A stretch of DNA of 63,126 nucleotides, the filler included, from Octopus bimaculoides (lineage: Eukaryota), in the NCBI RefSeq assembly GCF_001194135.2. It is 7 parts of 7 records of this genome, joined end to end, with 100 filler letters (N's around TTAATTAATTAA, not from the genome) between each part and the next. Parts side by side here need not be neighbours in the genome. Positions count along the whole stretch, not along the records: positions 1 to 15,299 come from NC_068983.1; positions 15,400 to 31,540 come from NC_068995.1; positions 31,641 to 41,864 come from NC_068988.1; positions 41,965 to 54,493 come from NC_069004.1; positions 54,594 to 56,950 come from NC_068985.1; positions 57,051 to 60,617 come from NC_069000.1; positions 60,718 to 63,126 come from NC_069006.1. One strand, given 5' to 3'. The position numbers and the translations under genes are program-made. This document shows positions 9,150 through 61,435 of this stretch, piece by piece. How positions within the stretch are numbered: position 1 is the first letter of the stretch; every line of letters begins with the position of its first letter. The notes under the pieces are model-generated. The model was not told the origin of the DNA. It did not search any database and saw nothing but the letters and a program-made list of their open reading frames with translations.

Positions 9150-9320
9150 CAGTTGCATATATTCATTCTCTTTTTTATTTTCTCTTATTCCTTTCTGCTA
9201 AAGAGCGTAGGCTCGAAACGTAAAAGGCTTTCTCACTTTCCCGAGCGTCAGACTGATACACCTGCATTTTGTTCATACACCTACCTTCGTCTTTTGTCTT
9301 TCTGTAAATTTCAAGTACAC
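9150..9320 (+). mobile_element. Penelope-like pLTR remnant, copy 1 of 3
   Basis: homologous to 55340-55505 and 61262-61435(-); contains hammerhead-like motif; ends in (CA)n. Confidence 0.7.
9190..9227 (+). ncRNA. Minimal type I hammerhead-like motif, variant core
   Basis: CCTTT-CTGCTAA-A-GAGC gtag GCTC-GAAA-CG-TA-AAAGG: 5-bp helix I, 4-bp helix II, core deviates at positions 6 and 8. Confidence 0.5.
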
Positions 9321-10234
9321 ATACACACACACACACACACACATATATATATATATATATACACATATATATATATATTTGTATACACACACACACACAC
9401 GTAACATATACATATATACATACTGATTTGGAGCAATGGATCTATCACACAATTGTTTTTACTGTTACTACAATTATAGCCCTCCCCTCCACTACTATAA
9501 CCACCACCACCACCTCTACTACTACTACCTCTACTACTGCTGCTGCTGCTGCTGCTGCTGTTACCACTGCTGCTGTCACTGCCGCTGCTGTTGCACAAGC
9601 ATTATGACATTACCAATATTACAACTGCTTCTACAACAATTGTTGTTGTTGGCTATGATGACGATGATTCTACTCACACACACACACACACACACACACA
9701 GGCACACACAAACACACACACAGATATACAATTTCTTTTTGGAATTGTGAATCTCGAAGCAGATAAAGCTACAAATAATAGCGTGTAAGTATTGGGTTAA
9801 AAAAAAAACCTTTGGAGAGAAAAGTCAAAGGCTGCATGCATACATACATACATGTGTTTGTGTGTGAGTGTGTGTGTATATATACAAATACACGTGTGTG
9901 TGTGTGTGTGTGTGTGTGTGTTAATGTCACCACTATTGCTATTGATGAAGATAAGAAACCTTTGATCACACATTTCCTATTGTCTCCACCCTGATACTAT
10001 TTCACACAATACTTCCAGTGCCATTCCCCTCTCTGAAATATCACCGGAATTATCTCCTTTCATTTCAAAGTAATCCATTTTTACCATTTCCTCTGACTTC
10101 TTCCCTCTTGACTGACCCTAAATGGTTACACTATCTGCTAAATAATAACAGCTACATCTCCAATTTTTACGTTCATATATATATATATATATATATATAT
10201 ATATATATATCATCACATTAGTCCGTAATATTAT

Positions 10235-10760
10235 TTTCTACTCTAGACACAAAGCTCGAAATTTTGGGGTAGGTGGCCAGTCGATTAGATCGACCCCAGT
10301 ACGACCTCGAAAGGATGAAAGGCAAAGTCGACCTCGGCTGAATTTGAACTCAGAACATAAAGACAGACGAAATACCGCTAAGCATTTCACCCGGCGTGCT
10401 AACGTTTCGGCCAGTTCGCCACCTTGTTAGTCCATGATATTCTATGAGATCACACAGTCTTGTTTGGAACATCTCTTTTCAAAGATCCGCTCCATGAGGA
10501 TTGACTCAGAGTTGAGGTGGGTGTACACAACAGCAATAATAACAACGGTTTAAATGTTTGGCACAAGGCCAGCAATTTCGGGGGGGGGGGGGCTAAGTCA
10601 ATTAGATCGACCTCAGTGTTCATCTGGTACTATTTTATGAACCCCGAAACGATGAAATGCAAAGTCGATCTCAGCGGAATTTGAGCTCACAACATAAAGA
10701 TGGATGAAATGCCGTTATTCATTTTGCTCGGCGTACTAGCGATTATGCTAGCTCATCCTC
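10235..10760 (-). mobile_element. Two tandem SINE family D copies
   Basis: gatcgaccccagt...gaaaggatgaaaggcaaagtcgacctcggc...tttgaactcagaac occurs twice. Confidence 0.85.
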
Positions 10761-12174
10761 TTCACAATAGTAATAATAATAATTATAACAATGAGGCGGC
10801 AATCATGTGGTTTCTCTATCTCCTAGAAATAATAGTGAAATCTCTTTAAATTACATACATGTGCCCTCTCGAAGAAGACGGCGCGTTGATGAACTAGAAT
10901 CTAAAGGACAGCTTGTTCATAGGCGATCTTCAATAGCATAGGCATAAAGGCCACAAATCAAAGCACAAACTACATGTGCCCAAATATAGCAGTTATTAGC
11001 TTGGCAGTATTATCAACTTCATTAGTCCTTTACGAACACAGGGAAACCAATCAAGCACTTAGCGGAAGTTATGTTCTTCATCGATCACCGGTGGATGATT
11101 ATGATGATGATGATAATGATGATGATGATGATATATATACATAAGTACGGCTTTATATCAAACATAAGTAGACAGACACTTTTTTAATTTGTACTTATGA
11201 GATAAAATACAAACGTACACACAAAAATATTCTTAAGTTATACGCTTTAGATATTTTAACGGTTTATTCCCAAGAAATAAACGAAAATCAATTTAACGAC
11301 TTTTTTCCCGAAATGGTTTAAATGGCCCTCTGACGATGCTATAACTTTAGATCCAGCTCAGTTACAGATCATGTCATTTGCCAAATAAACACAACTCCGT
11401 AACTCTATATATTTTCTGTGTCATATACATTCATTAATTGCATTATAAATGAACAGTGTTATGTTTCATGTATAGTTTATCTGAAAGAAGATATACACAT
11501 TTGTTTGAAACAAGATATACTACATCGCAGTTCTCATATATATTAACGTATGTGGACGTGTATGTATATAGATTAGTACATACATACATACATACATACA
11601 TTATATATATATATATATATATATATGCACGTAAATACACATACACATAACTGATAAATTCATTGTCATTTCTTTTATAAAAATCCATTTGATGTGTGCT
11701 AAGTTTAACAACAGCAAGAGATGCAGATGTAACCCATAATTTCTGTTTTCTGGGTGATCTGAAGATCTGAACTGAAAATATTTACAATACTTTAAAGCAA
11801 CTGAATTTAAGCTTTCAGCTGATAAAGAGGTGAATTTGGGTGTCCACAATGTTCATATTTGATAACTGAACATAGAAAACGGAGAAAAAGCTATTTCCCA
11901 AATCGAAAACCTTTACACCATTTATCTTTCTGTCAACCTTACTCCCCATAGTTTGTGCTACACATACACTAGTGTATGTAGTATGGTATACATACTACAC
12001 ATACAAGAGATGTATTGCACAAAGGCGCTGTGAACAAAGAGTAACCAATGAATATTATATCAAACTTTATATGAAATATGCCAGAGCTATCCTCTTACAA
12101 CAGGACAATATCCCCAACTGCACTTGAAGAAATAGTTTTGATATACATACAAAAAATTCGCTCCGTAGACATTC

Positions 12175-12305
12175 CTTTCTACTTTACGCAGATGGCCTGA
12201 AAAGGTGAAGGGCAAAGTCGACCCGGCAGAATTTGAACCTCGAACATAAAGACTGACGAAATGCCGCTCAGCGGTTTATCCTGCGTGCTAACGATTCTGC
12301 CATTA
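12175..12305 (-). mobile_element. SINE family D 5' part
   Basis: ggcaaagtcgacccggcagaatttgaacc...tgctaacgattctgcc. Confidence 0.8.
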
Positions 12306-59569: not shown

Positions 59570-60046
59570 CAATGTTTCCCAATTATCTTCCCCCAAGGCC
59601 CCACATGACTTATCAGTAAAATGTATGCCCCACTAGTGGTTGGGAAAAAATAACTTTATTTTTTATATTTAATCACAATTATTTAATATAAAAGAATCTG
59701 CCGGTAACTCTTTTAGCAAGTACTGAGTACAAGAAAGGAAGTACGTTATTGACTAAGAAATAAAAAAAAAATGTGAATCACTTTAATGAAAACTTTGTGC
59801 TTGGTGACTCTGGCAGATTTCTTTAATTCGAGGAGAGAATTTTGTTAGCGTTAGCTGTAAATCACTATTTCTTGTAATTGCAAGTCTGCTTCTCTTGGCC
59901 AGAAGCAAATCGTCAACAGCACTAAAGCCACACTCAACCAAATAAAACTAAAACTAAAAGAAAAAAAAAACTTTGGGATCTCACGTCACACCACAATTTT
60001 CCCAGCCACCACCAGTGGGACGTATGCCCCACGTTGGGAATCACTG
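59570..60046. mobile_element. hAT-like MITE
   Basis: TIR CAATGTTTCCCAA / TTGGGAATCACTG (11/13); left TSD half lost in gap. Confidence 0.6.
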
Positions 60047-60417
60047 GACCAGCTGTTTACAGAATTTCAGATATTTTCAGTGACATGGCTTATATTCTTG
60101 TATTTTGGTGTTTTTGTACAACTTAACATGTAACCATTTTTGTAAAAGAAATGACAGCAGTTCTTGGGACAAAGTAAGCAGAAACACCAACAATTTCCTC
60201 AGAATATTCCCTTTGAAACATTCCTAATAATGGAAGCATTTGTTATGCTTCCATTGACAAAGTTAAGGACTATTAATTACCAGGTACTTGCAAGAACTTT
60301 TAAGGGCAATAAATGGGGCAGGAACTATTATTGCTAAATTACTACCTTGTTGGACTCACAATAAAACTGGAAAGAACTATATCAACAATTTGTGTACAAA
60401 ATATTCACGCACGACCA

Positions 60418-60590
60418 TAGTGGCTTACGTGCAGACATGATTTCTCGGCAACCACTTGGATTTGGGCCAGACCCACTGCATGCAAACCTGGACATGTCTC
60501 TTTTACTAATAGCGTCAGGCCGACCAATGCCTTCTAATTGAATTAGACGGTAACTCTGTGGAAACCTGTTGGATATATGTATGAATATAT
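60418..60590 (+). mobile_element. Old SINE family C 5' half; matching 3' half at ~61085-61245
   Basis: cccactgc...caggccgaccaatgcc...agacggtaact followed by (TA)n. Confidence 0.6.
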
Positions 60591-61261
60591 ATATATATAT
60601 ATATATATATATATATANNNNNNNNNNNNNNNNNNNNNNNNNNNNNNNNNNNNNNNNNNNNTTAATTAATTAANNNNNNNNNNNNNNNNNNNNNNNNNNN
60701 NNNNNNNNNNNNNNNNNCGCAAATTTTTCTCTTCATATTTGTTTTCTACACATTTTTTTTTATATCTATTACACATTTTTTTTTGTTTTGTTTTGGTGAC
60801 CGGAAGTTAAATTAAACATTAATCTACTTCAGAAAGATTTTGGTTTTGGCCGTTCTTGGATTTTTTTAACGTTTACACAAACATCATTTCGTTATTTCCA
60901 TTCCAGTTTTTCATTTTACCTTCACCTCACTTTTTCCATAGTCACGTAGACCACATTGACACGTAGATTAGGATTACAATTTTTTGATATAGCCATCTGC
61001 GTCTCATACTAAATGTATACGAAACCAAGAAAAATAGACTGGTGGGTTTTATCTGAGAGGATATTTGTTTTTATTCACCCAACCAGCGCGTGACAACCGG
61101 TGTTGGATTGTTTACGCCCCTATACCTTAACGGCTCGGCGAAAGACACCGTTAAAATAAATACCCGACTTAAAAAAAAAAATTAATAAATACGTACTTGA
61201 ATAACCCCAGGATGGCCGCTGTCCATAAGTGAAACAAGTAAAAGGTTGTATTATAAGCACA

Positions 61262-61435
61262 GTGTGTGTGTGTAGCTCAAGTTTACAGAAAACGAAAGAC
61301 GGAGACAGGTGAGGGAACAACAATCAGGTCTATTTGTTTGACGCTCAGGAAGAATGGAAAAGTCTTTGACGCTTCGAGCCTACGCTCTTCCACAGAAAGG
61401 AATGAGAATTAAAAAAACGGAGAGAGAAAATTGTG
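61262..61435 (-). mobile_element. Penelope-like pLTR remnant, copy 3 of 3
   Basis: reverse-complement homology to 9150-9320 and 55340-55505. Confidence 0.7.
61364..61399 (-). ncRNA. Minimal type I hammerhead-like motif, U at core position 6
   Basis: CTTT-CTGTGGA-A-GAGC gtag GCTC-GAAG-CG-TC-AAAG (also A15.1 to G). Confidence 0.5.

Follow-up and report, generated by a model that had tools for sequence, protein, structure and literature searches.

The 63,126-nucleotide stretch of Octopus bimaculoides DNA analysed here (the window) carries three dispersed copies of a short repeat, each with a minimal type I hammerhead ribozyme motif in which a pyrimidine takes the place of the adenosine at core position 6 (A6). 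Contigs from public sequencing runs imply that the repeat family comprises thousands to about 1e5 copies. The explanation we favour, and to which we give close to but short of an even chance, is that this abundant family represents likely 3' ends of Penelope-like elements (PLEs), whose source elements would likely bear a minimal hammerhead in which position 6 is a pyrimidine (mostly U); selection would likely have retained this variant as a weak ribozyme that forms dimers and is assisted by protein.

Anatomy of the hammerhead motif in three repeat copies

An earlier note on this DNA had reported three dispersed copies of the repeat, and on re-reading the sequence we found all three where it had placed them. 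The copies are mutually homologous (76.0-79.5% identity over 117-171 bp, with blastn E values of 1e-19 to 9e-29) and the repeat unit is ~160-170 bp long. A 15-base seed has three exact occurrences in the window and two further matches with three mismatches (0.47 expected), and nhmmer returned no fourth copy in the whole window. When a relaxed minimal-hammerhead descriptor was applied, it matched the window four times, at the three copies and at 27625-27670, as against 0 matches across 300 shuffles. Among the matches listed by a repeat finder there were only microsatellites, and no tRNA was found. The repeat copies, their hammerheads and the comparison motif lie as follows.

9159..9315, plus strand: repeat copy 1, consisting of a pyrimidine-rich leader, the hammerhead, a ~90-nt tail and a (CA)n/(TA)n terminus (blastn, nhmmer)
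9190..9227, plus strand: minimal type I hammerhead of copy 1, with C6 (9198), U7, A8, extra A (9202) and A17 (9222)
55363..55522, plus strand: repeat copy 2, with a (TA)n terminus; the reference for contig alignment (blastn, nhmmer)
55395..55430, plus strand: minimal type I hammerhead of copy 2, with U6 (55402), A7, extra A (55406), G12 (55419) and U17 (55426); predicted cut after 55426
61275..61431, minus strand: repeat copy 3, with a (CA)n terminus (blastn, nhmmer)
61364..61399, minus strand: minimal type I hammerhead of copy 3, with U6 (61392), G7, G15.1 (61372) and C17 (61368)
27625..27670, minus strand: comparison motif, a minimal hammerhead with a canonical core (CUGAUGA followed by A), belonging to a different repeat family (no blastn homology to copies 1-3)

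A single parse is common to all three copies: the 5' strand of helix I, a 7-nt core, an extra A, helix II (4 bp, GUAG loop), GAAR, CG, UH and the 3' strand of helix I. Neither helix I (CUUU/AAAG) nor helix II (GAGC-guag-GCUC) differs among the copies, and both are paired throughout; the cores read CUGCUAA, CUGUAGA and CUGUGGA, just as had been described, with position 6 being C at 9198, U at 55402 and U at 61392 on the minus strand. An extra A separates positions 9 and 10.1 in 3/3 copies; this hallmark of such motifs had been overlooked. Other parts of the earlier description held for some copies only. The second core, said to be a shared GAAA-CG-UH, has the gaaannuh form with the palindromic 15.2-16.2 that defines PLE minimal hammerheads; it is exact in copies 1 and 2, whereas copy 3 has GAAG (A15.1 to G, 61372). 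Perfect pairing, claimed for all helices, applies to helices I and II but not to the C3-G8 pair of copy 1, which is broken by G8A without C3U, nor to helix III of copy 3, where the pair is G-U. Only in copy 2 is the core unchanged except at position 6, and the hammerhead of copy 1 is likely dead.

The motif at 27625-27670, to which the repeat had been likened in spacing, has the same junction geometry (7+1 nt and a loopless helix III) but differs in its 5-6 bp helix II, its longer loop and its lack of blastn homology to the copies. The window contains it once; a short tail comes after it and then a CA run adjoining a gap, and it offers a natural positive control for assays. Rfam covariance models gave no hammerhead match to copy 2 or to this canonical control, and none among the best 150 of 335 window matches; they are uninformative here because the canonical control also goes unrecognised.

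A shifted register, with a U inserted after G5 and A6 thereby restored in copy 2, was rejected, as it costs G8 and does not suit copy 3. The tail motif at 55445-55449 and its equivalents, for which CGAGC is the majority sequence, could pair by complementarity with G12 and the 3' strand of helix II in a competing fold; the predicted pair probability is 0.15 for copy 1 and 0.02 for each of the other two.

Origin, size and subfamilies of the repeat family

That the motif is a minimal type I hammerhead, as the earlier note had read it, is supported by its anatomy. It shares with the PLE minimal hammerheads the extra nucleotide after A9, the G10.1-C11.1 pair, the palindromic 15.2-16.2 and the U-rich 5' flank, and its two 4-bp helices I and II fall within the 3-7 bp characteristic of that group. 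The copies end at a TA/CA microsatellite 113, 116 and 113 nt after G10.1 (copies 1-3, respectively), where the background is 2.1% per position, and an insertion bias towards microsatellites has been reported for the Naiad and Neptune PLEs; the terminal TA/CA run could, however, be the element's own tail instead of its target. From this anatomy the repeat is likely a 5'-truncated 3' end (pseudo-long terminal repeat, pseudo-LTR) of a Penelope-like retroelement. PLEs make up 6.83% of the O. vulgaris genome, in 190 families (PMC13282606).

Searches for the repeat elsewhere gave no further members. Prokaryote genomes had 0 matches; one search of viral DNA collections had 0 and another 19, none of the 19 with hammerhead context, and the 16 matches in a metagenome collection (GC content 0.54-0.70) likewise lacked such context in 16 of 16 cases. 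Chance translations of the repeat found no protein at E<=10 among 46, 462 and 5397 candidates in protein collections, and a further protein search with repeat translations gave five matches, none with the repeat's peptide. No published sequence of the family was found in the literature or in the supplement texts of PMC8557442, PMC13282606 and PMC8967140, a search that stopped short of the Zenodo consensus library of PMC13282606.

The size of the family was gauged from public sequencing runs; of 24 runs listed, 18 contained at least half of the words in 54920-55520. Contigs of four runs were aligned on copy 2 (55376-55522) at 80% likeness. In two DNA runs, 11,669 of 28.8 M and 11,670 of 29.8 M contigs aligned, and the summed depth peaked on the hammerhead at 6.2-6.3 M (run X3) versus ~20-60 for the long pieces listed; summed depth is not a copy number, with short overlapping contigs overcounting up to ~30-fold. 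The density of copies in the window gives about 1e5 copies (95% range 2e4-3.5e5, with an assumed genome of 2.0-2.4 Gb). Over the tail the depth drops to 1.35-2.1 M, with loose ends at 55436 and 55439, and the hammerhead is therefore common to copies whose tails do not align. The loose-end consensuses (agreement 0.61-0.68), compared by eye with the tails of the window copies, match copy 3 at 27/30, copy 1 at 26/30 and copy 2 at ~22/30 letters. The tail letters of copy 2 at 55454 and 55464 also occur in a large contig population, and copy 2 departs from the aligned majority in 3 of the 75 places scored; the divergence of copies 1 and 3 from their own tail types is 10-13%. There are at least three tail types among the public contigs, and the three window copies appear, from these comparisons, to represent three tail subfamilies with one common hammerhead.

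Each DNA run contains one contig (depths 61 and 56) with a back-joint from 55437 to 55378 with 18 letters between, that is, a tandem duplication of ~78 nt of the hammerhead somewhere in the genome, which would be a natural dimer candidate.

Five runs guessed to be RNA contain 0.48-0.78 of the words of 54920-55520 (601 bp), and the sole run on record as RNA contains 0.06. The two RNA-guessed runs that were aligned gave 152 and 602 contigs, in which the allele shares were DNA-like (A17 at 29-31% versus 28%). This signal fits passive transcription and is silent on cleavage or strand; the alignment listed no abundant RNA ends, which contigs are unable to reveal. As the five RNA-guessed runs contain much of it, the stretch around copy 2 together with its flank (54920-55520) may lie in an intron or untranslated region of an expressed gene.

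Selection, cleavage and rival explanations

Under the explanation we favour, the element's reverse transcriptase (RT)/endonuclease would start reverse transcription ~113-116 nt downstream of helix II, and insertion would occur at AT-rich microsatellites, usually leaving only a short 3' end. In tandem source transcripts two motifs would pair via the ACGU palindrome to give helix III, and U6 would weaken the CUGA turn, so that the RNA would be cut only slowly after H17 and would depend for this on the element's protein or a high concentration of divalent ion. Insertion probably does not depend on cleavage, and a variant weakened in this way could therefore still amplify. The scattered single copies would likely be inert and neutrally decaying. 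Every hypothesis predicts such decay after insertion; the signal of selection, which is moderate, concerns the source elements, in which the variant ribozyme was likely kept by selection.

Several patterns of variation agree with this. Among the three copies, variable columns are fewer in the hammerhead (5/36) than in the tail (29/82; Fisher p=0.026), and the only hammerhead columns with three letters are N7 and H17, the free positions of the core (post hoc chance 0.002-0.033). Across the family, the contig variant table starts at 55406, as it needs 31 letters to the end of the aligned stretch, and thus covers neither position 6 (55402, 27 letters in) nor the 5' strand of helix I. It gives H17 as U in about 66%, A in 28% and C in 6%, with G unlisted (<1%), and has no listed variant at U16.1 and A1.1. 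At 55419-55425 only CpG changes are listed, and at G12, A13, A14, A15.1 and U16.1 no allele exceeds the CpG background. We considered CpG asymmetry as a sign of selection and rejected it, as tail CpGs are equally asymmetric.

What is published on A6 sets the expectations for cleavage. The earlier note had called A6 normally invariant, which is not absolute: a natural A6C in one phage ribozyme (Bcep176) cleaves, at a low level, and is rescued by Mn2+ or high Mg2+ (PMC3088659, PMC7151607). Of the PLE-type motifs, all 56 representative metazoan examples in Fig. S3 of PMC4209133 have A6 (by eye), yet the descriptor used there requires A6. PLE minimal hammerheads show no monomer cleavage and weak dimer cleavage (PMC4209133), and the hammerhead of an Anolis PLE needs the element's protein, its inactivation leaving in vitro insertion unreduced (PMC11167929). 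An engineered A6C that is severely impaired at low Mg2+ recovers to 0.33 per min at 10 mM Mg2+ and to 0.18 per min with 0.3 mM Mn2+. The stronger proposal that a natural U6 hammerhead works in a retroelement family of 1e4-1e5 copies, with dimer formation or the element's protein rescuing the broken U-turn, is in our view rather unlikely.

A number of observations weigh against our explanation. Concerning selection, the contig alignment used seed and identity filters that favour apparent conservation near the core; apart from H17, the scored hammerhead variation consists mainly of CpG transitions, and family-wide variation is mostly CpG decay; G12 decays at 3.3-3.8%, inside the tail CpG range of 2.0-7.8%; alleles at high frequency (>=10%) number 0/22 in the hammerhead without H17 versus 7/52 in the tail, a difference that is not significant (p=0.096); and the non-catalytic loop II bases U, A and G are as invariant as the catalytic ones. 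The helices had been described as conserved, which holds relative to the tail, but a check of helices I and II for covariation found none, all 8 pairs being invariant in the three copies, and the changes in helix II among contigs are one-sided and at most 3%. Concerning cleavage, a second core lesion is present in 2/3 window copies, the monomer fold has a low predicted population (P 0.02-0.10), A6 lies in the CUGA turn and single mutants of the CUGA region have low activity in a scan of a type III hammerhead (PMC9901934), at 0.3 mM Mg2+ the engineered change to C6 slows cleavage about 1e5-fold (0.30 to 3.6e-6 per min), and the literature covered holds no data on U6 hammerhead activity. The family-wide claim for position 6 rests on three copies (the contig table begins at 55406), and 0/3 copies with A6 is still compatible with a family A6 share of up to 63%. 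Finally, no PLE domain or open reading frame (ORF) was found in 10 of the 148 listed window ORFs with Pfam, and a six-frame grep of the window for PLE motifs gave three isolated matches. As these scans found no PLE ORF, we infer the PLE origin from anatomy; truncated PLE copies need not carry an ORF.

Part of this evidence would suit a family that has a pyrimidine at position 6 throughout and a dead ribozyme, an ancestral loss of A6 having been amplified and the segment conserved either as a signal for folding or protein recognition or through descent alone. The invariance of loop II together with the lack of covariation and the CpG-like decay of G12 favour it, as do the second lesions in two of three copies and the low activity of CUGA-region mutants; moreover, hammerhead mutants do not lower PLE insertion in vitro (PMC11167929), and PLE clades without canonical hammerheads are known from the literature to proliferate well. 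It is harder to reconcile with subfamily variation that falls on N7 and H17 (U/A/C, G <1%), positions at which a working core tolerates change, and with the lack of any allele above CpG background at G12, A13, A14, A15.1 and U16.1. We consider this account doubtful, though possible.

The loss of A6 that the earlier note claimed for every copy is borne out for all three in the window, and its extension to the whole family draws on the same count. If the family or its largest subfamilies had a canonical A6, the window copies would have decayed or would come from minority lineages without it. In favour of this are the A6 of all 56 PLE-type motifs in Fig. S3 (PMC4209133), although that descriptor requires it, the three-copy reading of position 6 with its permitted A6 share of up to 63%, and the age of the copies. 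Against it, decay alone would have to produce three transversions, with the same base arising twice, at 1e-4 to 4e-4 per site for 10-15% divergence. The chance that all three copies lost A6 independently is about 5e-4 (0.006 when 11 core sites are allowed for), and smaller still if the changes must be transversions. As the window copies appear to represent three distinct tail types, three independent losses are unlikely. It is thus unlikely that an A6 consensus has simply decayed in these copies; A6 subfamilies may exist, and an A6 majority we judge improbable.

Very improbable, finally, is a non-autonomous element resembling a retrozyme or short interspersed element and moving via its own short or circular RNA instead of being a truncated PLE end: the finding of no ORF beside any copy, the ~160-170 bp unit and the family sequence in RNA-guessed runs would suit it, but the copies are dispersed monomers ending in microsatellites, the motif is minimal and of PLE type rather than the canonical retrozyme type, the RNA-guessed allele shares are DNA-like (A17 at 29-31% versus 28%), as in passive read-through, and no abundant head-to-tail joint was found among contigs aligned to 55376-55522, a stretch that may lack the repeat's 5' end.

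Other window features and comparison with known systems

Elsewhere in the window, 20220-20690 on the minus strand contains a fragment of a Mariner-type transposase (Pfam HTH_48, E 2e-5), and a degenerate tandem array with a 10-bp period lies around a gap at ~23660-24900 (repeat finder, family D11). ORF fragments at 35505-35957 (plus), 45335-45610 (plus), 46445-46723 (minus) and 43119-43397 (plus) have no significant Pfam match; we take them to resemble the C-termini of non-LTR retrotransposons.

Penelope hammerheads cleave poorly, one is protein-dependent, and insertion in vitro can do without their cleavage. For the question of what they are for, a family that is highly amplified and has a pyrimidine at the U-turn position amounts to a natural experiment. 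If the U6 motif cuts, the core tolerates more than mutational scans suggest when dimers or protein assist it; in the opposite case its conserved shape must have a purpose other than cleavage. Either way, surveys based on CUGANGA undercount such motifs, and if a working U6 family were real, animal genomes might hide a class of variant-core ribozymes. A literature search, which did not cover one large variant survey, found no published amplified pyrimidine-6 hammerhead family.

The animal non-LTR retrozymes (PMC7229834; bioRxiv 10.64898/2026.07.22.740005) resemble the repeat in being short, non-coding and PLE-related with a type I hammerhead; they differ in forming tandem arrays with mostly canonical hammerheads and circular RNAs, whereas here we see dispersed monomers with a minimal variant core. 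The Bcep176 phage hammerhead (Perreault 2011, PMC3088659; PMC7151607) shares a natural pyrimidine at position 6, but is a C6 at a single phage locus. The octopus motif, known from sequence alone, has mostly U and is a minimal dimer-type motif in thousands of copies or more. In the PAc Poseidon PLE of Anolis carolinensis (PMC11167929) the hammerhead likewise lies ~110-120 nt upstream of the 3' end of insertions and targets are AT-rich. The start of reverse transcription there, at 111-118 nt, is close to the 113, 116 and 113 nt found here, by analogy and not homology. The ORF of PAc Poseidon starts in stem II, unlike the repeat, in which no ATG or ORF was seen, and no position-6 variant is mentioned in the part of that source covered.

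The closest likeness is to the minimal hammerheads of PLE pseudo-LTRs (Cervera and De la Pena 2014, PMC4209133). These have the same type I topology, short helix I, extra nucleotide after A9, G10.1-C11.1 pair, loopless palindromic helix III and U-rich 5' flank, and they too occur mostly as dispersed single copies. The main core variant described for them in the part covered is U3-A8, and the octopus repeat is known without a PLE ORF. Position 6, which is C, U and U here, is A in their 56/56 motifs, and their descriptor hard-codes cuganga. Because all three octopus copies depart from the CUGANGA core at position 6 (copy 1 having A8 as well), the repeat motif is a variant of the PLE minimal hammerhead and not a member of that group.

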